A DNA stretch of 28,749 nucleotides from Acidobacteriota bacterium (GTDB lineage Bacteria > Acidobacteriota > Polarisedimenticolia > J045), in contig JAMOQA010000552.1 in the NCBI GenBank assembly GCA_027064265.1, positions 1 to 28,749 of the forward strand. The letters run 5' to 3'. Positions within the stretch are counted from its first letter, which is position 1, and each line of letters starts with the position of its first letter. The notes under the pieces are model-generated. The model was not told the DNA's origin. It made no database searches and was given only the letters and a program-made list of their open reading frames with translations. Positions 8,250 to 21,366 of the stretch are shown in pieces. A program made the position numbers and the translations under genes.

Positions 8250-9998
8250 ATGACCGCACCCGCGAGATCCCCCCGCGCCTTCCCGTGGGGGCCCGTCCTC
8301 CTCCTCCTGGCCGCGGCGGGAGCCGTCTTCGCGCTCTCCCTCGGGACGCGGGACCTGTGGCCGCCGGACGAGCCCCGCTACGCCCTGGTCGCCCGGGAGA
8401 TGCTCGAGGACGGGTCGTGGTTCCTTCCCCACGTCAACGGCCGCCCGTACCCGGACAAGCCGCCCCTGCTCTTCTGGCTGATCGCCCTCGCGTCCCGGCT
8501 GACCGGGGGCGTGAACCAGGTCTCCGCCATCCTCCCCTCCCTGGTCTCGGCGCTCCTGGTCCTCCTGGGAGCGGCACGCCTCGCCTTCGTACTGCCGGGC
8601 CGGGACACCCGCGGGGCGCCTCTCCTCGCCGCCGGCCTGCTGGCCGTCTCGTGGCGCTTCGCGATGCAGGCCACCGTCGGCCAGATCGACATGCTCCTCG
8701 TCGCGGGGACGACCTGGGCCTTCCTGCTGCTGGTGCTCGGCGCCGGCCTCGACCCGGGAGGCCGGCCCCGGCCGCGGCTCGCGGTCCTCGCCTGGGGGGC
8801 GATGGGGCTCGCCATCCTGGCCAAGGGACCGGTCGGGCTGATCCTCCCCCTCGGCGGGCTGGTCCTCGGGCTGCTCCTCGCCGGGGAGCGGGTCCCGTGG
8901 CGCCGCCTCTTCCCGCCCGCCGGGATCGCTCTCCTCGTCGCCGTCCTGGCGGCCTGGCTCGTCCCCGCCTCCCTCGAGGCCCTCCGGGGCGGCAACCGGT
9001 CCTGGCTCTTCGACCTGCTGTTCCGGCAGACCGCCGTGCGGTACGTCGCCTCCTGGCACCACTTCCGTCCACCCTGGTACCTGTTCGTCGTCCCGCTCTA
9101 CGACTTCCAGCCCCTCGTGCTCTTCGCCCTGCCCGGCATCCTGGCCCTGCCCCGGGCCTTCCGGGCGGTCCGCCGGGCGGGAGCGGCCGACCCGGACCAG
9201 CGCGCCTTCCGGGCGGTCCTCCTCCTGGCCGGCGCGGTGCTGTTCGTCCTGGTCTTCTTCTCGATTCCCCGGGGAAAGCGGGCGGTCTACATCCTGCCGG
9301 CGATGCCCCTTCTCGCGGCCCTCGCCGGCATCGACCTGGACCGGCGGCTGGCGGGGCGGGCGCCCCTTCGTCCCCTGCGCCTCGCCGCGGGGGCGGCCGC
9401 GCTGCTCTTCGGCGGCCTCGCGATCGCCCTCTTCGCGGTGGTTCCCGGGGAGCTGGCGGCCCGGGGGATCGACCTGGACCCGCGCCTCTTCGCGGGAACC
9501 CTCGCCCTCGCCGCCGCGCTGCTCCTCGCGGCGGCCCTCGCCCGGAAACCCGCCCCCTGGCTCGCGGCCGCGCTCCTCGCCGGCCTCGCCACCTGGGGCG
9601 TCGGCTACCGGACCGTCCTCCCGGCCCTCGACGCGCGCAACTCGGCGGGCGCGTTCGTCGCCGCGGCCCGGGAGAAACTGCGCCCGGGGGCGCCGGGGGG
9701 GATGGTCGACTTCCGGGCCCGCTTCGGCTTCCACGCGGGCCGCCTCGTGGAGGCCCTCCCCTCGGACCACCCGGCGATGGACCGGCTCGCCCGCCGGCTC
9801 GCCGGGGACGAACCGTTCTGGGTGATCGTGAGGGAGCGGCACCTGCCCGCTCTCCTCCGCCGGATACCGCCCGACCGGAAACCGGTCGAGGTGCTCCGCC
9901 GCCCGGTGGGGAACGCCGTCTTCGTCGTCCTCGCCAACCGGGCGGCGCTGCGGGAACCCCCGGCCGGCCGGGGCGATGACCGGGAGGAGGAACCGTGA
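8250..9998 (+). CDS. ArnT-like (GT83/PMT_2) GT-C membrane glycosyltransferase, copy 1
   Basis: 'LWPPDEPRYALVAREM', 'PHVNGRPYPDKPPLLFW', 'LAKGPVGLILP', 'HFRPPWYL' and 'KRAVYILP'; many TM segments; ATG at 8250 with a GGAG RBS. Confidence 0.88.
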   Translation: MTAPARSPRAFPWGPVLLLLAAAGAVFALSLGTRDLWPPDEPRYALVAREMLEDGSWFLPHVNGRPYPDKPPLLFWLIALASRLTGGVNQVSAILPSLVSALLVLLGAARLAFVLPGRDTRGAPLLAAGLLAVSWRFAMQATVGQIDMLLVAGTTWAFLLLVLGAGLDPGGRPRPRLAVLAWGAMGLAILAKGPVGLILPLGGLVLGLLLAGERVPWRRLFPPAGIALLVAVLAAWLVPASLEALRGGNRSWLFDLLFRQTAVRYVASWHHFRPPWYLFVVPLYDFQPLVLFALPGILALPRAFRAVRRAGAADPDQRAFRAVLLLAGAVLFVLVFFSIPRGKRAVYILPAMPLLAALAGIDLDRRLAGRAPLRPLRLAAGAAALLFGGLAIALFAVVPGELAARGIDLDPRLFAGTLALAAALLLAAALARKPAPWLAAALLAGLATWGVGYRTVLPALDARNSAGAFVAAAREKLRPGAPGGMVDFRARFGFHAGRLVEALPSDHPAMDRLARRLAGDEPFWVIVRERHLPALLRRIPPDRKPVEVLRRPVGNAVFVVLANRAALREPPAGRGDDREEEP

Positions 9999-11905
9999 CC
10001 GAGCCCCGCGCGGCCGGCGGCGGCCGGGTCCGGACCCTCCTCCTCGTCGCCCTCGCCGCCGCGGCCCTCGCCCCGTCGATCGTCGATCGCGAGCTGCTGC
10101 CCCCGGACGAACCCCGCTTCGCCCTGGTCGCCCGGGAGATGTTCGCGTCCGGCGACTGGGTGGTCCCGACCCGGGGCGGGCGTCTCTACCTGGACAAGCC
10201 GCCGCTCCTCTTCTGGGCGGCGGCGCTGGCCTTCCGGCTCGCCGGCGGCCCCTCGGAGGCGGCGGCCCGGGTTCCCTCCCTCCTCGCCACCCTCCTCCTC
10301 GTGCTGGTCCTCCACCGGCAGGGCCGCCGCTGGTTCGGCGAGCCGACCGCCACCCTGGGAACCCTGGTCTTCTCCTCGTTCCTCCTGGTGCAGCAGCGGG
10401 GGGCGTGGGTCGCCACCGACGCCCTGCTGGCGAGCGCCGTCTTCCTCGCCCTCGCCGCCCTCGACCGGGCGCGGGACGGCGGCACGTTCGCCGCCGTCCT
10501 CGCCGGGGCGGCCGCCGCCCTCGGGGTACTCGCCAAGGGGCCGGTCGCCCTCCTGCACCTGGTGCTCGCGGCGGTGGCGGGGCTCCTCGCCGGGGAGCGG
10601 TTCTCCCTGCGCCCCCTCGTGCGGCCCGCCGGGCTCCTGCCGTTCCTCGCCGTCGCCCTGCCGTGGCCGGCGCTCCTGGTCGCCCGGCTCGGCTGGGACG
10701 TTCCCCGGCACGCCCTGTGGCACCAGAACGTGGAGCGGTTCGCCCGGTCCTGGGACAACCTGGAACCGTGGTGGTACCACGGGAAGGCGCTCTTCCTCGG
10801 GACGCTCCCCTGGTCCCTCCTCCTCGTCGGCGCCCTCGCCCCCGCGGTGCTGGGACCCCTCCTCCGGGAGCGCCGTGCCCGGTGGCTCGCGGGCTGGGTC
10901 CTCCTCGAGTTCGCCTTCTTCTCCCTCCCCCAGGGGAAGCGGGGGGTCTACCTGCTGCCGGTCTACCCGGCCCTCGCCCTCCTCGCGGCCCGGGCGATTC
11001 CCCTGGTCCGCACCCGGCCCGGCCCCCGTCTCGCAGGGGCGGCGGCCGCCGGGATCGCGGCCCTCGCGGCCCTGGCCGGGGCCGTCTCGATCGCGCTCGG
11101 CGGCCCGGGGCTTCCCGCGGCCCTGGCCGGCGAGCCGGCGGTGCGCCGGGGAGCGGCGGCGCTGCTGGCCCTGGTGGCGGCAACCCTCGGGGCGGCGGCC
11201 GCTCTCCTCGCCCGGGGCGACCGCCGCTATCCCTGGGCGATCGCCGCTCTCCTCGTCGGCGCGGGGATCCTGTGGCCGTGGGCCCTCGCGCCGGCGATCG
11301 ACGCGGGCCAGGGGGCCCGGGCATTCGCGGCGGCGGCCCGGGCGGCGGTCCCGCCCGGGGCGGAGGTCGCGGTCACCCGGACGAAGTGGGAGGTCGTCGC
11401 CTGGTACACCGGGTGGTCGATGGAACGGCTGGCCTCCCCCGAGGAGGTCCGTTCCTGGCTCGCCTCCCCCGGTTGCCGGGTGGTCCTCGGCCCCCCGGGA
11501 GAGCTGGGAGCGCGGGAGCGGTGGCCCCGGGGTACCCGGGTCCTCCTCGAGGGCCGGCTCGGACGACGACGGTACCTGGTCGTCGGACGCGGGTGCGGCG
11601 GGCTTCGTCAGAGGAGGCCGTGGGCGAGGAGGAGGTCCCGGTCGACGAGCAGCTCCTCCGTCCGTCCCCGGGCGACGACCCGCCCCCCGTCGAGGATCGC
11701 CGCCTCCGGGCAGAGGGCCCGGGCGAACTCGAGATCGTGGGTCGCGACCAGCTGGGTCGCCGGGAGCTCGCGGAGCAGCTCCGCGAGCTCCCTCCGCCCC
11801 CGCGGGTCGAGACCGGCGGTCGGCTCGTCGAGCAGGAGGACTCCCGGCTCGAGGACCAGGACCCCGGCGAGGCAGGCCCGCCGCTTCTCGCCCTGGGACA
11901 GGTGA
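9995..11905 (+). CDS. ArnT-like (GT83/PMT_2) glycosyltransferase, copy 2, with a C-terminal tail overlapping the convergent ATPase gene
   Basis: 'LLPPDEPRFALVAREM', 'YLDKPPLLFW', 'LAKGPVAL', 'EPWWYH' and 'KRGVYLLP'; GTGA overlap with copy 1. The last ~100 codons are antisense to 11608-11905. Confidence 0.82.
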   Translation: MTEPRAAGGGRVRTLLLVALAAAALAPSIVDRELLPPDEPRFALVAREMFASGDWVVPTRGGRLYLDKPPLLFWAAALAFRLAGGPSEAAARVPSLLATLLLVLVLHRQGRRWFGEPTATLGTLVFSSFLLVQQRGAWVATDALLASAVFLALAALDRARDGGTFAAVLAGAAAALGVLAKGPVALLHLVLAAVAGLLAGERFSLRPLVRPAGLLPFLAVALPWPALLVARLGWDVPRHALWHQNVERFARSWDNLEPWWYHGKALFLGTLPWSLLLVGALAPAVLGPLLRERRARWLAGWVLLEFAFFSLPQGKRGVYLLPVYPALALLAARAIPLVRTRPGPRLAGAAAAGIAALAALAGAVSIALGGPGLPAALAGEPAVRRGAAALLALVAATLGAAAALLARGDRRYPWAIAALLVGAGILWPWALAPAIDAGQGARAFAAAARAAVPPGAEVAVTRTKWEVVAWYTGWSMERLASPEEVRSWLASPGCRVVLGPPGELGARERWPRGTRVLLEGRLGRRRYLVVGRGCGGLRQRRPWARRRSRSTSSSSVRPRATTRPPSRIAASGQRARANSRSWVATSWVAGSSRSSSASSLRPRGSRPAVGSSSRRTPGSRTRTPARQARRFSPWDR

Positions 11906-14041: not shown

Positions 14042-14968
14042 ATGCCCGGCCGCCGCGAACGAAAACGCGCTCCGAGGGACCCCCTGCAGGTGAACCTGCG
14101 GTGGCTGGTCCACCTGATCCTGCTGACCGTCGTCCTCCCGACGACGGTCCTCACCGGGATCGGGCTCGCGATCCTCTGGGTCCACGAGCAGGTCTCCGAC
14201 CTGCTGTTCGGGCTGCTCGTCGTCGCCTTCGCCGGCTCGATGACCGCGGGGGCGCTGCTCCTGCTCTTCCTCGCCCGGCGGGGCGCCCGCCTCGCCGAGG
14301 TGCAGGAGACCTTCGTCTCCCGGATGAGCCACGAGATCCTGACCCCGATCGCCGGGATCCGGCTCCACGTCCAGATCCTGGAGACGATGGACCTGCCCCG
14401 GGAGGCGGCCGACTCGATCCAGGCGATCCGCCGGGAGGTCGACCGCCTCCAGGAGCTGGTCGGCCGCATCATGGAGTGGCGCCAGGTGCGCTCCCCGAAG
14501 CACCTCTACCGCATCCGGCGCACGACGCCGGCGGAGATCGCGGAGATGGTCGCCGAGCGCCTCGCGGACCCGGCGGCCCTCCGGGTACGGATCGTCGACG
14601 AGTTCACGTTCCGCGCCGACCCGGACGCGATCGCGGAGGCCCTGGGCAACCTGGTGCAGAACGCGATCAAGTACGCGGGAGAGCGTCTCCCGGTGGAGAT
14701 GGTCGCCCGGCGCTGGGGCCGCCTCGCCGTCTTCGCGGTCAACGACGAGGGGCCGGGGCTCCCGCCGACCCCCCTCGAGCAGCTGTTCGAACCGTTCACC
14801 CGGTGGGTCGCCCGGGACCGGCCGGACCCCGGGGGAACCGGGCTGGGACTCGCCATCGCCCGCCAGATCGTGCGGGCCCACGGGGGCCGCCTGACCGCCT
14901 CCCGGCGACGGGGACGGGGCACCCGGTTCCTCGTCACCCTCCCGTCCGCCGAGGGAGCTTCCCGATGA
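14042..14968 (+). CDS. Small two-TM sensor histidine kinase with no periplasmic domain
   Basis: Two TM helices joined by ~6 residues (HEQVSD); H-box 'FVSRMSHEILTP'; N-box 'LGNLVQNAIKY'; 'DEGPGLP' and 'GTGLGLAIA'. Confidence 0.9.
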   Translation: MPGRRERKRAPRDPLQVNLRWLVHLILLTVVLPTTVLTGIGLAILWVHEQVSDLLFGLLVVAFAGSMTAGALLLLFLARRGARLAEVQETFVSRMSHEILTPIAGIRLHVQILETMDLPREAADSIQAIRREVDRLQELVGRIMEWRQVRSPKHLYRIRRTTPAEIAEMVAERLADPAALRVRIVDEFTFRADPDAIAEALGNLVQNAIKYAGERLPVEMVARRWGRLAVFAVNDEGPGLPPTPLEQLFEPFTRWVARDRPDPGGTGLGLAIARQIVRAHGGRLTASRRRGRGTRFLVTLPSAEGASR

Positions 14969-15648
14969 GCCACCACCTCCTCGTCGTCGAGGACGACCAG
15001 ACCCTGCGCGAGGGGCTGCGCCGGGTCCTCGAGAAGAGCGGCTACCGGGTCTCCACCGCGGTGCGCGGCATCGACGCCCTGCGCCTGATCCGCGAGGAGC
15101 CGCCCGACCTCGTGGTCCTCGACCTGATGCTGCCCGGCCTCGACGGAACCTACGTGCTCGAGAAGATCCGCAGCGAGGGATTCACCGCTCCCGTGATCAT
15201 CCTCTCCGCCCGGGACTCGGTCGAGGACCGGATCCGGGGCCTGCGTACCGGGGCGGACGACTACGTCACCAAGCCGTTCGACCTCGAGGAGCTGCTGGCA
15301 CGCATCGCGGTGCGCCTGCGGCGCTCCTACGAACCCCGGCTCTTCCGTTTCGGCGACGTGGTCGTGGACGCCGGCGCCCGCTCGGTGACCCGCGGGGGCG
15401 AGGAGCTGCACCTCACCCCCAAGGAGTTCGACCTTCTCGTCTACTTCGCCGAGCACCCGGGAGAAGCGCTCTCCCGGGGGAAGATCCTCGAGGACGTGTG
15501 GGGCGCCGATTACCGGGGCACGCGACGCACCGTGGACAACTTCGTCCGCGCCCTCCGGGCCAAGCTCGAGGACGACCCCGAGGAGCCGCGCTTCTTCCAG
15601 ACGGTCCGCGCCCGCGGCTACCGGTTCGACCCGCGCGGCCGCACCTGA
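14965..15648 (+). CDS. OmpR/PhoB-family response regulator
   Basis: 'LLVVEDD', 'VLDLMLPGLDG', 'GADDYVTKPF', winged helix 'LTPKEFDLL...RTVDNFVRALRAKLE...TVRARGYRF'; ATGA overlap with the kinase. Confidence 0.95.
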   Translation: MSHHLLVVEDDQTLREGLRRVLEKSGYRVSTAVRGIDALRLIREEPPDLVVLDLMLPGLDGTYVLEKIRSEGFTAPVIILSARDSVEDRIRGLRTGADDYVTKPFDLEELLARIAVRLRRSYEPRLFRFGDVVVDAGARSVTRGGEELHLTPKEFDLLVYFAEHPGEALSRGKILEDVWGADYRGTRRTVDNFVRALRAKLEDDPEEPRFFQTVRARGYRFDPRGRT

Positions 15649-15938: not shown

Positions 15939-18900
15939 CTACGGGAGGGTGCCGGCGCGGAGGTCCAGGTAGCGGACCTTCCCTTCCTTCTCGTTCGAGA
16001 GCACCACGTGCCCCGGGTCGAGGATCCGCGGGAGCGAGTCCCACTGGGCGTTCCCCGACGATCCGTCGTCGGTGAAGCTGGTCCGGAGCACCCACGCGCT
16101 CCCGTCCCACGTGTAGGCCCGCAGCTCCACCGCGTCCTGCCCGACGGTCTCCACCTCGAACCGCACCCGCCAGGGCGGATCCCCGAGGTCCCCTTCCCAG
16201 GGCGCCACGGACCCGGCCTTGACCCCGTTCACGTACTTGTTGAACCGGATCGTGTCCCGGCCCGAGGCCGCCTCGACCTTGCAGCGATAGGACGTATGGG
16301 TGTTCCCCGTGCCGGAGGCACGGAGCCCGAACGTGAAGTCGTAGTCCGGGTCGCCCGGCGTCTCCGGCTCGATGGAAACGACGACGAACGAGTCGGCCGC
16401 GGCGATCGTCACCCCCGTCTGGACCCGCGCGAACGAGCCGGCCTCCGGGTGGACCGCCGTCCGGTTCTCGAGGAGGAAGTACTCGCCGGAGGGGGCCGAG
16501 GGCTCGGACAGGGCTGGCGCCCACAGCTTCCCCCCGAGGTCCAGGTTGTCCGGGGACGCCGGGCGGACGAGGTCCGGTCCCTCGAACCCGTCCACCAGGG
16601 TAACCGTCCCGCCGTGCGCCCCGGAGGCCCCGTCGTCCCCGGGCAACGGCACCGCGTCGAACGCCTTCGAGGGCGACTCCTCCGACCAGCCGCTCTCGTC
16701 CCGGTAGGAGACCCGGGCGTAGAGGGTGCCGCCCTCTTCCGGGTGATCGTAGAGGGCCCGCACCTCGGTGAGCGGGGGCTCGACCACCGTCACGTCCCAG
16801 ATCACGTGGGCGTCGAAGTCCGCCCCCCCGGCCGTGGAGATCCGCCAGCGGGACGCCTGGTGCGTTCCGGTGCCCCCGTACTCCGAGCCGACCAGCCAGG
16901 CCCCGAACGCATGCACCGCCTTGACGATCGTCACCGACGGGCGCTCGCTCGGCTCGCACGCATCCCCCGTGCCGTCGCCGTCCGAGTCCTGCTGGTCCGC
17001 GTTGGGCACGCTCGGGCAGTTGTCGTCGGTGTCCGGCACGCCGTCATTGTCGTCGTCCGGGTCGCACGCGTCGCCGGAACCGTCCCCGTCCAGGTCCTCC
17101 TGGCCCGGGTTCGACATCGTCGGGCAATTGTCGTCGGCGTCCGGCACGCCGTCATTGTCGTCGTCCGGGTCGCACGCGTCGCCGGAACCGTCCCCGTCCA
17201 GGTCCTCCTGGCCCGGGTTCGATACCGTCGGGCAATTGTCGTCGGCATCCGGAACCCCGTCACCGTCCGCGTCGGGGAACTCGCAGGCGTCCCCCGTCCC
17301 GTCGCCGTCGCTGTCGGCCTGGTCCGGGTTCGCGACCCGGGGACAGTTGTCGTCCCCGTCGTTCACGCCGTCCCCGTCGTCGTCCGGGTCGCACGCGTCA
17401 CCCGAGCCGTCCCCGTCGAGATCGGCCTGGTCCGGGTTCGCGACCCGGGGACAGTTGTCGTCGGCGTCGTCCACGCCGTCGCCGTCGTCGTCCGGATCAC
17501 AGGCATCGCCCGAGCCGTCCCCGTCCAGGTCCTCCTGGCCCGGGTTCGACACCGTCGGGCAGTTGTCGTCGGCATCCGGAACCCCGTCACCGTCCGCGTC
17601 CTGGACGTCCTCGCACGCGTCCCCCGTCCCGTCCCGGTCGCCGTCCGCCTGGTCCGGGTTCGCGACCGAGGGACAGTTGTCCACCCGGTCCCGCACGCCG
17701 TCCCCGTCGGAATCGGGACAGTCGTCGGGCCCCGGGCGCGGCGTGCCGTCGGAGTGGTTCCCCAGGGTCCCCTCGCCGAAACAGTTCTGCGCGGCGACCA
17801 GGTAGTAGAAGATCTCCCCGGCGGCCGGCTCCGCCCCGTCGTGGCTCTCGGGCGTCGCCAGGTCGAGCTCGTGGCAGGTGAGTCCCCAGGTGAACGGGGT
17901 CCGCGTGCGGCCCTTGTAGACGTCGTAGGACTGGGCCTCGGGGATCTCGTCCCACGAGATCGTCTCCTTGTCGGCGGCGAGGGTCACGGTCGGCGGCAGC
18001 TCGCCCGGGACGCCGTGGACGTTGCCGTCGCCGGGCGCGCAGTCACAGGCGTCCCCGACCCCGTCCCCGTCCGTGTCGGCCTGGTCGGCGTTCGCGTCCG
18101 CGGGGCAGTTGTCCACGTCGCCGCAGACGCCGTCGTCGTCCGCGTCGTTCTCCGGGTCGAGCGGGCACGCATCGCAGGCGTCTCCCACGCCGTCCCCGTC
18201 GCCGTCCTCCTGGCCGGGGTTCTCGACCCGCGGGCAGTTGTCCACGGTATCGTCGATGGCGTCCCCGTCGTCGTCCGGGTCGCAGGCGTCGCCCGAGCCG
18301 TCCCGGTCCAGGTCCGCCTGGTCGGCGTTCTCGTCGCCGGGACAGTTGTCGACCAGGTCCCGGACCCCGTCGCCATCCTCGTCGGGACAGCCGTCCGGAC
18401 CGGGCCGCGCACCACCGTCGGACGCGACCCCCAGGGAACCCTCCCCGAAGCAGTTCTTCGCCGAGACCAGGTAGTAGAAGAGCTCGCCGATCGCCGGCTC
18501 GAACGAGTCCTCGCTCGCCGTCCCGTCCACGTCGAGGTCGTGGCAGGTGTGCCGGTACTCGAAGCTTCCCCGCACCCGCCCCTTGTAGACCTCGTAGACC
18601 TCGGCGTCGGCCGCCGGGTCCCACAGCAGGGTCACCCGGTCGCCCGCGAACCGAACGGTCGGCCCGAGTTCCTCCGGGATGCCGTGGATGTTCCCGTCGT
18701 TCGGCGCGCAGTCGCAGGCGTCGCCGAGCCCGTCGGCGTCGGCGTCCTCCTGGCCGGGGTTCGCGTCGTCCGGGCAGTTGTCCACGTCCCCGCAGACACC
18801 GTCGTCGTCCGCGTCGTTCTGCGGATCGGCCGGACAGCTGTCGCAGGCGTCCCCCGTCCCGTCACCGTCGCCGTCCTCCTGGCCCGCGTTCGCCGCGCGG

Positions 18901-20654
18901 GGACAGTTGTCGACGTCGTCCGCGATGCCGTCCCCGTCGTCGTCCGGGTCGCAGGCGTCGCCCGAGCCGTCCCCGTCCAGGTCCGCCTGGTCCGGGTTCG
19001 CCACGTCGGGACAGTTGTCGGCGTCCTGGCAGACCCCGTCGCCGTCCGCGTCACCGCCATGGGCCGCGCACGCGTCGGCCAGGAGCTGCCAGGCGGCGTA
19101 CGCGTCGACCAGCCCCTCGCCGGAGACCGTGTCGAACCCGGGCTCTCCCAGGTCCTCCGCGCTCCCGAAGAGGACCTCGGCGATGCGGGCCGGGCTCGCC
19201 GTCCCGTCGGCGTCGAGCAGCAGGGCGACGATCCCGCCGAGGTGGGCGGCCGCCGCGCCCGTGCCGTCGACGCGGCCGTACCCGCCACCGAGCCGGGTGG
19301 ACGTCGACCCGTCGCCGCAGGCGGCCAGGTCCGGCTTGAGCAGTCCCTGCTCCGCGCCGTTGCGGAACGGGTAGTCCCGGTACTCCTCCGGCATGTCGTA
19401 CGGGTAGGCGTCGTCGACCTCGCCCCTGATGTCGGTCCACTCGGCAGGCCCGCGGGAACTCTTCCGCGCGACCTGGTCGGTGGCGACGTCGAGGTTCGCC
19501 GCGGCGAGCGCGCCGGAGAGCCCGCCGACCAGGGTCTGCGCATCGTGGAGCCGCGGGGGGGGACAGTTTCCCGGGGTATCCACGTTGTACGGGACCGGGT
19601 TCTTCCCGAGCTTCTGGCCCTGGTCCCCCGCCCCGGCGACCAGGAGCTTGCCCGCCGCCAGGACGGAGTCGGTCGCCTGCCGCCACGAGGCGTAGTCCGG
19701 GCGAGGATCATCCGCCCAGGACTCGCCGTCGCCGACGACGATCACGTCCGCCCCGTTGTCGAGGGCGTACTGGACCGCCTCGAGCATGTCGGCCTCGGAG
19801 TCCCCGACCCGCAGCGCCATCAGCCGGGCCCCGGGCGCCGCCCCGGTCGCGGTCCCCGACGTCCCGTCCCCCACGATCAGCCCCGCGAGCAGCGTCCCGT
19901 GCCCGTTCTCGTCCTGGGGATCCCCGTCGTCGTCGACGAAGTCATAGCCGTGAACGTCGTCGACGTAACCGTTTCCGTCGTTGTCGAAGTGGTCGCCACC
20001 CCACTCGTCGAGGTTGGTCCAGAGACGGCCAGAGAGGTCCGGGTGGGTGAGGTCCACACCGGTGTCGATCAGCGCGACGACGACTCCGTCGCCGTTCACC
20101 CCCTCGTCCCACACCTCGGGCACGCGCATCCGCTGGAGCGCGGTGGTCACGTCCGTTGCCGTGGAGTCGGCCTCCGCCGCGGTCTCCGGCGCCGCGGGCG
20201 CCGACGGGGACGAGGGAACGATCTCGCGGTCCCGGCGGACGCCCCGCACCCCGGGCCACGCGGCGACCCGCTCGAACGCGTCCGGCGCCAGGTCGACCCG
20301 GATCGCCCCCGCGACCCACAGCAGCCGCGCCCCCCGGGCGAGGCCCTGCTCCTCGAGGCGGGCGAGGCGCCCGAGCACCGGCGCCGCCGCCTCGCGCCAG
20401 GCTTCCCGGGACGGAACCCCGGTTCCCGCCGACCGTTCCAGGAGCACCAGGGCGGGAACCAGTGACGTCTCCGACGACGGAGGCGCGCCGCCGGGGACAC
20501 GCCCTCCCCGTGCCGCCGGTGCCAGGAGGGCGAGCAGCAGGGTGACGATGGCGATCGCGGGGGAGACCCGCGGGACCCCGGAGCGCGTGCTGACGATGAC
20601 CGTTCCCTCCCACCCCGACGGGGCGCTCGCCCCAGCGACCGATGCCGCGCCCAT
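15939..20654 (-). CDS. Large secreted S8 subtilase homologue (probably catalytically inactive) with thrombospondin type-3 repeats, two FN3-like Cys-containing modules and C-terminal beta-sandwich domains
   Basis: Signal-like '[18 protein letters not shown]'; prodomain-like region; 'ALIDTGVD' (Asp); 'NGHGTLLAG' (His); 'AGAGD' and '[12 protein letters not shown]' where AGN and GTSM are expected; many 'DGDG..D..DNCP...NPDQ.D.DGDG.GDACD' repeats. Start set at the ATG at 20654; a later start is possible. Confidence 0.88.
16960..19060 (-). repeat. Intragenic thrombospondin type-3 (Ca-binding) repeat arrays in three blocks
   Basis: 13 'DNCP'-containing units plus two short 'CP' units by manual count; 108-bp periodicity at DNA level in the last block. 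Boundaries are approximate. Confidence 0.9.
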
Positions 20655-20769
20655 GGTACGGAGCCCCCCGTGGCGGTTCAACGAAAAGATGGGGCGGAAG
20701 GGAAGAACACGCCCGCCCGCGGGAGGACCCTTGCCACGGATCGTCCGCTCCTGTCCACGAGCGTTTGCT

Positions 20770-21366
20770 TCAGGAAGGAGCGCCCCCTGGCACCAGGTCC
20801 CGCGGGTCGATCCCCGCCTCGCGGAGCGCCCGGGACCACGCCGCCTCCGGCGGCACGTCGAACAGGTACGAGGCGTGGGCGGCGAGCGGCACCCAGGCCC
20901 CGGCCGCCAGCTCCGCCTCGAGTTGTCCCGGCGCCCACCCGGCATAGCCCAGGTAGCACCGGAACCGGGCGCCGGGCCGCCCGGCCAGCCGCTCGAGCCC
21001 CGCCCGGGCGACCACCAGCCGGATCCCCGGCGCGACGAGCAGCTCGTCGTCGCCGTCCTCGGCGAACAGGGGGTCCTCGCCGTGGAGGACCAGCAGGTGG
21101 CGGTCCGCCTCCACGGGGCCACCGATCATCACCCGGGCGTCCGGGTCCCCCTCGTAGGGGATCTCCTGGCCCTCGCACAACTCGGCGACGGTGAGGGGCC
21201 CCGGCCGGTTGATCACGAGCCCGAACGCTCCCTGTTCGTTGCTCCTGACCAGGAAGACCACCGTCCGCTGGAAGTTCGGGTCCTGGAGCTGGGGCATCGC
21301 CGCGATGAACCCCGGTGCGAGTCCCTCGTCGATGCGCGGCCGGCCGTCTCCGCCGGGGCCGGTCAT
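20770..21366 (-). CDS. yqgE: YqgE/AlgH family protein (UPF0301)
   Basis: '[17 protein letters not shown]', '[10 protein letters not shown]', 'GGPVE', '[15 protein letters not shown]'; ATGA overlap with gpmI. Confidence 0.92.

Follow-up and report, generated by a model that had tools for sequence, protein, structure and literature searches.

A subtilase-like gene in an Acidobacteriota contig

We analysed a 28,749-nucleotide stretch of DNA from an Acidobacteriota bacterium (contig JAMOQA010000552.1 of GenBank assembly GCA_027064265.1; henceforth the window, meaning the whole stretch) and, within it, a minus-strand gene whose product, P0002, carries a subtilase (peptidase family S8) head in which the catalytic serine and the oxyanion-hole asparagine are replaced. 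The host genome is a metagenome-assembled genome (MAG) of 2.59 Mb in 603 contigs and is 84% complete. Members of the family carry the NCBI labels Acidobacteria or Acidobacteriota (P0018, which is L019; P0019, which is L021/L045), and one of the public sequencing runs that contain the stretch is labelled as a hydrothermal vent metagenome.

The window has a G+C content of about 73%, and the longest frame over the gene extends on the minus strand from 15939 to 21122. We took the ATG at 20654 as the start (residue 1), which yields a protein of 1571 amino acids; the frame itself stays open as far as 21122, and a GTG nearby could also serve as the start. An antisense frame of 1537 amino acids on the plus strand was discarded as a shadow of the high G+C content; no family supports that frame. 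The head region, annotated from alignments and from AlphaFold2 (AF2) models with their predicted local distance difference test (pLDDT) scores, is laid out as follows.

15939 to 20654 (15942 to 20654 without the stop), minus strand: whole gene, 1571 codons plus stop, from the open reading frame (ORF) list and translation
20505 to 20654, minus strand: N-terminal region with a putative Sec-type signal peptide, from reading of the sequence
20232 to 20459, minus strand: subtilase prodomain, beta-alpha-beta-beta-alpha-beta, residues 66 to 141 (AF2 pLDDT >90, Foldseek)
20154 to 20231, minus strand: pro/mature junction, residues 142 to 167 (alignment)
19062 to 20153, minus strand: Peptidase_S8 (subtilase) fold, by all indications catalytically dead, residues 168 to 531 (Pfam, phmmer alignments to the PDB, AF2, dN/dS)
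20064 to 20066, minus strand: Asp197, the catalytic Asp, kept, motif IDTG (alignments)
19899 to 19901, minus strand: His252, the catalytic His, kept, motif HGT, codon CAC (alignments)
19623 to 19625, minus strand: Asp344 (GAC) at the position of the oxyanion-hole Asn (alignments)
19257 to 19259, minus strand: Gly466 (GGC) at the position of the nucleophile Ser (alignments)

From its N-terminus, P0002 consists of a signal peptide, the prodomain, the Peptidase_S8 domain, three thrombospondin type 3 (TSP3; Pfam TSP_3) blocks, two Cys modules, and an Ig-like and a lectin-like C-terminus. The N-terminus reads as a Sec signal: by eye and from the sequence only, a basic stretch is followed by 13 hydrophobic residues and PAARG, with no lipobox Cys, and signal-like N-termini also occur in homologues with intact ("live") and with inactivated ("dead") heads.

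The head is predicted to fold as pro-subtilisin but lacks two catalytic residues

The head of P0002 falls within the S8 superfamily both by profile and by predicted fold. Pfam PF00082 (Peptidase_S8) matches residues 188 to 514 over the whole profile (positions 1 to 288 of 288, E 7e-36), and an AF2 model of residues 60 to 570, built from a 32-row alignment, has a mean pLDDT of 88.6 and a predicted template modelling (pTM) score of 0.88. The model comprises the beta-alpha-beta-beta-alpha-beta prodomain, a disordered linker (residues 151 to 165, pLDDT <50) and a complete subtilisin alpha/beta fold. In Foldseek it comes closest to unautoprocessed pro-subtilisin E (3WHI), to SUB1 with its prodomain and to ProN-Tk-SP, while mature subtilisins are matched with a Foldseek probability of 1.00, with TM scores by target length of 0.88 to 0.91 to subtilisin BPN'. 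The head is therefore predicted, with high confidence, to adopt the fold of a pro-subtilisin.

We aligned P0002 with phmmer to solved subtilases, namely deseasin (3VV3), an intracellular serine protease (7Y6M), PvSUB1 (8COY) and Ak.1 protease (1DBI). In these alignments GTGAAAAH of P0002 lies under GTSMATPH or GTSMAAPH, and GAGDQG under AAGNEG or AAGNNG. Accordingly, the Asp-His-Ser triad of an active S8 peptidase is broken at Gly466, and Asp344 stands in place of the oxyanion Asn, which is present in all 37 live homologues (codon AAC or AAT). A first-pass annotation of this DNA had placed the retained Asp and His and the Gly-for-Ser and Asp-for-Asn changes at the same four sets of coordinates, which translation and alignment show to be exact.

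Could the head still hydrolyse substrates by way of a different nucleophile or chemistry, such as Thr465, a water activated by Asp and His, or an acidic oxyanion residue as in sedolisins? Asp197, His252 and the cleft are conserved, and sedolisins (S53) do have Asp at the oxyanion position. The two triad types have been described (PMC11593635). Yet the sequence has no Ser for about 10 residues on either side of position 466, and where subtilisin has the lining of its catalytic centre P0002 has, by alignment, only Gly, Asp, Gly, Ala and Thr. Thr465 itself aligns with a Thr that every active homologue in the alignment has directly before its nucleophile; this is the equivalent of the invariant Thr220 of subtilisin, which is not the nucleophile. 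A related dead lineage (see below) moreover has Arg in place of the catalytic His, a sign that catalysis was given up. Replacement of Ser221 by Ala in subtilisin lowers kcat about a million-fold. We regard a surviving hydrolase as very improbable.

The substitutions recur in independent assemblies and in sister species

The MAG is fragmented and the repeat region of the gene is assembled differently in other runs, which raises the question of whether the substitutions stem from sequencing, assembly or binning, or from a chimeric window. Five public runs from two studies contain the stretch; a look-up of RNA runs listed none. Contigs from four of these runs (two studies) cover 18944 to 20300 with no difference from the window and none at either codon; this check used assembled contigs and not raw reads, so that rare variants could escape it, and the source sample may be among the runs. 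In a second assembly (P0003) the whole head is identical, the only difference being one 36-residue TSP3 repeat fewer. The same residues recur in two other species, with a collinear 28-kb context at 86–87% nucleotide identity, and the assembly trouble is limited to the TSP3 repeats below about 19060. We reject an artefact, to which we give next to no credence, since the contigs of four runs, the second assembly and two sister species agree.

Three further observations concern the same data. In one run a divergent contig carries 24 changes in 22 codons, 17 of which are synonymous, and its residues match the sister species. Below about 19060 contigs of the public runs break or rejoin differently. 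The one-repeat (36 residues) gap between assemblies, within 16956 to 17759, reflects either copy-number variation or repeat collapse.

The dead head is under purifying selection

Both other species of the window's genus (g1), G002 (P0004/L001/L009) and G001 (L010), share the same four residues (Asp, His, Asp, Gly; D-H-D-G) at 88–91% identity of the head. The codon of Gly466 has drifted synonymously, being GGC in the window and GGG in G001. The L001 ORF is a collinear orthologue with 86% amino-acid identity, and the ORF is intact in all three species, with no frameshifts or stops. The ratios of nonsynonymous to synonymous substitution (dN/dS), computed against L001 by the Nei-Gojobori method, are as follows.

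Whole gene: 0.147
S8 domain: 0.10
S8 core from Asp to Asn: 0.04–0.05
Prodomain: 0.30
TSP3 blocks, modules and C-terminal region: 0.11–0.14
Neighbouring (housekeeping) genes: 0.03–0.29

Across pairs, the head gives 0.08–0.11 in the dead lineage (three pairs) versus 0.04–0.06 in live relatives (five pairs, three genera), and the prodomain 0.20–0.29 versus 0.10–0.20. The dead domain is under purifying selection; constraint on it is somewhat relaxed, yet strong.

We next considered where the changes fall. Among 37 live homologues 81 alignment columns are at least 88% conserved, and the g1 proteins keep 77 of them, departing only at Pro163, Asn344 (to Asp), Ser466 (to Gly) and Pro484; two of these departures are catalytic, the other two being non-catalytic prolines. 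A second dead lineage (G004/L015, P0007, P0008), which reads Asp, Arg, Asp, Ala (D-R-D-A), departs at exactly three columns: His, Asn and Ser. Less strictly conserved residues on the cleft side have also changed in g1, where HVNSAGN has become LVAGAGD and the strand aligned to subtilisin Ser125–Gly127 reads GDG. The first-pass annotation had counted several coordinated changes within the Ser and oxyanion motifs. Because live relatives read GTSAAAAH at the Ser motif, the changes of Met to Ala and Pro to Ala are ancestral in the family and not part of the loss; judging from the alignment, the loss-specific catalytic changes are Ser to Gly and Asn to Asp only. With a homologous fold, missing catalytic residues, an intact ORF and purifying selection, the head has the hallmarks of a pseudoprotease, as had been proposed from the sequence and as the shared substitutions and the predicted pro-subtilisin fold now corroborate.

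The prodomain probably stays attached

The pro/mature junction GDGDQSGPN(P) is conserved in live relatives and in the dead protein P0007, whereas in g1 it is replaced by a longer linker rich in Ala, Pro, Ser and Thr. Catalytic-site mutants, like the Csp pseudoproteases of Clostridioides difficile, fail to autoprocess (PMC7200643). The absence of a nucleophile, the lost junction motif and this precedent together suggest that the prodomain of P0002 remains uncleaved and attached. Retention of the prodomain, which the first-pass annotation had raised on general grounds, is strengthened by the loss of the junction motif and by the precedent, and we still hold it as an inference. The genome also encodes two intact S8 paralogues, L003 and L004.

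One locus with live, dead and headless proteins

The gene sits in the order PDH E1/E2/E3-DsbA-iPGM-DUF179-[gene]-response regulator/histidine kinase (PDH, pyruvate dehydrogenase), and a positional orthologue downstream of DUF179 is found across the family. Its head occurs in the following states.

Live head (D-H-N-S): G007 (g6), G011 and G018 (g10), G006 (g5), G008 (g7)
Dead head (D-R-D-A): G004 (g3) and the metagenomic P0007
Dead head (D-H-D-G): the genus of the window (g1)
No S8 domain: genus g4 (G005, G014, G021, G022) and two NCBI MAGs named "Acidobacteria bacterium" (P0097, P0115)

The live orthologues (G007/L011, G011/L014, G006/L016; P0005, P0006, P0009, P0010) have the same architecture as P0002 and lie at the same locus. 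Their S8 domains are 50–59% identical to that of P0002, and unlike it they keep Asp-His-Asn-Ser and the GDGDQSGPN junction, along with the lower head dN/dS given above. The headless orthologues (L114:6315-10091, L115:2446-6177, L116-L118 and L120, all of g4) form a complete locus, DUF179-[TSP3 plus C-terminal domain]-response regulator. Their products have a signal peptide and TSP3 repeats and share the Cys modules and C-terminal domain of the other orthologues, and the 15–80 bp between DUF179 and the headless gene hold no S8 remnant. The C-terminal 325 amino acids are single-copy in 20 of 23 species genomes of the family. On these distributions the TSP3 and C-terminal part is the core of the locus, and the protease head is optional.

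This raises the possibility that the dead head is a decaying, functionless relic heading for a loss such as that in g4, with constraint imposed only by the folding and export of the whole protein. The S8-less positional orthologues show the head to be dispensable for the locus, the dead head and prodomain evolve with a dN/dS roughly double that in live relatives, and the junction motif has degenerated. However, the ratio of 0.08–0.11 accrued over a dS of about 0.5–0.6, far from neutral, and it lies below the values for the TSP3 blocks and the C-terminal region of P0002; the 77 conserved positions are kept, with changes concentrated at catalytic residues and not scattered, and none of the three species has a frameshift or stop. 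We consider a relic unlikely.

Catalysis appears, from alignments, to be lost recurrently in this S8 subfamily: about 10 of the 164 S8 homologues recovered in two protein searches lack at least one catalytic residue, and they do so in several patterns unrelated to one another. For example, the metagenomic P0151, P0164, P0176, P0190 and P0197 have His changed to Asn, Ser, Leu or Gln with Ser changed to Glu, Gln or Leu. In a free S8 tree the g1 proteins stand on their own stem and the D-R-D-A rows fall into a polytomy together with live ones, a topology that requires three changes; a single dead clade was not rejected by the approximately unbiased (AU) test (p 0.185), and a genus tree built on E1a, E1b, DsbA and DUF179 gives no resolved branching order. 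The Ser codon of live relatives is mostly AGC, from which the GGC of g1 is one step, a transition, while the GCC of g3 can be reached in a single further step from GGC, or in a single step from TCC. An evolutionary burst on the g1 stem was also considered and discarded: the S8 stem length of 0.6 is no clear sign of acceleration because the housekeeping stem of g1 is also long (0.42).

Two side observations concern these genomes. Genus g4 also has closely related live S8 domains elsewhere (L022-L024, at G022:C6, G014:C56 and G021:C12), fused, as in P0013 and P0017, to other C-terminal domains (Pfam MopE-type copper-binding, dockerin), which hints that the head has been shuffled between proteins. 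The "single-contig" genome L028 (G004:C1) is a scaffold with runs of N; its D-R-D-A gene is split by an N gap inside TSP3, and the part encoding the C-terminal domain is found at the end of the scaffold, at a distance of 1.36 Mb.

Stalk and C-terminal domains

The remainder of P0002, downstream of the head, comprises the following.

18690 to 19058, minus strand: TSP_3 block 1 (Pfam; COMP and thrombospondin-2 matches)
18429 to 18689, minus strand: Cys-containing beta-rich module, copy 1, residues 656 to 742, no Pfam family
18021 to 18428, minus strand: TSP_3 block 2 (Pfam)
17760 to 18020, minus strand: Cys-containing module, copy 2, residues 879 to 965
16956 to 17759, minus strand: TSP_3 block 3 (Pfam), one 36-residue repeat fewer in P0003
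16653 to 16937, minus strand: predicted Ig/FN3-like beta-sandwich opening the conserved C-terminal region, residues 1240 to 1334 (AF2 model m43545def39be)
15942 to 16430, minus strand: predicted ConA-like (L-type-lectin/galectin-like) jelly roll, residues 1409 to 1571 (AF2 pLDDT 82–95, Foldseek)

Pfam TSP_3 is matched with E 2e-94 over at least 12 repeats or stretches, and the blocks match the type 3 repeats of COMP and thrombospondin-2. The Cys modules recur in all homologues at 50–62% identity and, in Pfam searched up to E 5, show no match except a TSP_3 edge; at the same threshold the prodomain and the C-terminal region likewise have no Pfam family. The AF2 model of the C-terminal region has a mean pLDDT of 71. 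For the Ig-like part, feature matches in the ESM Atlas to FN3 and Ig clusters serve as leads only. The jelly roll resembles ERGIC-53, VIP36, galectins and CBM66 by Foldseek (TM 0.5–0.66 by target length, E 1e-4 to 2e-5, about 10% identity) and is 52–60% identical in all orthologues, S8-less ones included. Between the Ig-like and lectin-like domains, residues 1337 to 1414 (window 16201 to 16644) hold many invariant Gly, Pro, Asp and Trp at an AF2 pLDDT below 50. The C-terminus ends in a beta-strand of the lectin-like domain, with no MYXO-CTERM or PEP-CTERM tag and no transmembrane tail.

Comparison with known pseudoproteases and subtilases

Among subtilases, the Csp proteins of Clostridioides are the only pseudoproteases studied in depth. 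Like P0002, the germination proteins CspC and CspA of C. difficile (S8A; PDB 6MW4) pair a subtilase fold and prodomain with replaced catalytic residues (PMC7200643, PMC6636752). In CspC the nucleophile Ser is replaced by Gly (G485) and the catalytic His by Thr; in CspA the corresponding residues are Ala and Gln (PMC7200643). Neither protein autoprocesses; both retain the prodomain and act non-catalytically in signal sensing (PMC7200643, PMC6636752). In both cases live paralogues or orthologues exist in related organisms. Unlike CspC and CspA, P0002 keeps His and also changes the oxyanion Asn, and it is a predicted secreted protein of about 1570 residues with a TSP3 stalk and a lectin-like end, from a diderm Acidobacteriota as opposed to a spore-forming Firmicute. 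There is no specific kinship with Csp: P0002 scores 18 bits against the cut-off of 675 for NCBIfam CspC (NF040808) and 32 bits against that of 1250 for NF040809, and its neighbours encode PDH, iPGM and a two-component system rather than sporulation functions. Nor is it a type VII secretion mycosin (TIGR03921, 101 bits versus 278.75).

The best-scoring solved subtilase by sequence is deseasin MCP-01 (PDB 3VV3, E 1.8e-26), a collagenolytic protease that is active, retains Ser and Asn and carries other C-terminal domains. The two share a Ca-binding-type insertion, D-N-D-G-N-G-Y-(I/V)-D-D, between Asp and His, while deseasin lacks an insertion of about 100 residues that P0002 has between the Asn and Ser positions. 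Tandem Ca-binding repeats of the form DxDxDGxxDxxDNCPxxxNxxQxD are common to P0002, thrombospondin/COMP (PDB 3FBY, 1YO8) and Myxococcus MtsC (NF047638), a likeness at the level of repeats only; P0002 has neither a MYXO-CTERM tag nor a thrombospondin C-terminal domain. Literature searches yielded no description of the P0002 family. Even so, as a dead subtilase comparable to CspC and CspA, P0002 belongs to a known kind of pseudoprotease and is one gene rather than a system, so that the "undescribed system" of the first-pass annotation went too far.

A putative non-catalytic head on a calcium-binding stalk

Taken together, we think it likely that P0002 is a secreted multidomain protein with a true pseudoprotease head, kept as a non-catalytic, prodomain-bearing module. 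The predicted fold, the substrate cleft, Asp197 and His252 are kept, while the nucleophile is gone and Asp344 occupies the place of the oxyanion Asn. With no nucleophile and with Asp344, the head would be expected neither to hydrolyse peptides nor to remove its own prodomain; its inactivity is judged from the sequence. Most likely the head would then act as a non-catalytic binding or structural module with the prodomain attached; it might bind a partner, present a capped cleft or assist folding. Scaffold, protease decoy and adhesin, the roles named in the first-pass annotation, are candidates. It would stand at the tip of the Ca2+-binding TSP3 stalk, with the lectin-like domain at the far end, and this domain, as modelled, probably binds a glycan of the matrix or of a cell surface. 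The binding roles of head and C-terminal domain are both ones that we infer.

Several points weigh against this interpretation. In the AF2 model the junction linker has no confident position in the cleft, and a live S8 paralogue, L003 or L004, could remove the prodomain in trans. The head dN/dS, about twofold above that of live heads, indicates some relaxation. For the lectin-like assignment the TM scores are moderate and the model has a mean pLDDT of 71, and the run check relied on contigs, one of which sets may come from the source sample. Finally, the S8-less orthologues of g4 imply that the locus can work without a head, and the head's own role may therefore be minor.

A bolder reading, with a small but real chance of being right, is that the head has been re-purposed as a ligand- or cation-binding receptor pocket and is not a passive relic. 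In both dead lineages the oxyanion Asn has an acidic replacement, accompanied by His in g1 and by Arg in g3; selection could here have favoured a new binding chemistry in the old active site, on a Ca2+ stalk with a glycan-bound lectin-like foot. If so, the live, dead and headless series would represent a matrix protein that repeatedly switched between cutting, holding and ignoring one target.

Whichever role the non-catalytic head plays, dead enzymes kept by selection are a recognised yet poorly sampled class in bacteria. The locus establishes no new principle but offers an unusually clean natural experiment, with live, dead (in two patterns) and headless forms at one locus in one family, in which the contribution of a pseudoprotease head, and whether the oxyanion change of Asn to Asp is adaptive, become testable. 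What is new is this orthologous series, the restriction of changes to catalytic residues and the replacement of the junction motif in g1. It also exposes an annotation problem, as public records name such proteins "S8 family serine peptidase".

Repeat-driven family matches and neighbouring genes

A related problem arises from the stalk. P0002 exceeds the NCBIfam cut-offs for MtsC (426.7 bits versus 350) and for an Omp28-related selenoprotein (263 versus 200), in both cases only by summed repeat matches. For MtsC (NF047638) the score is the sum of six repeat stretches, the best of which covers model positions 89 to 266 of 428, and P0002 is not a member. That the TSP3 repeats drive the score past the cut-offs of two unrelated equivalogs carries a risk of automatic misnaming.

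Elsewhere in the window, at 8250 to 11605 and 14090 to 15642, lie a tandem pair of PMT_2 (GT-C type) glycosyltransferase genes and a gene pair for a histidine kinase and a response regulator. Both stay linked to the TSP3 gene in the distant relatives L001, L114 and L115, and from this gene order either may be functionally tied to it, through glycosylation or regulation of the secreted protein.

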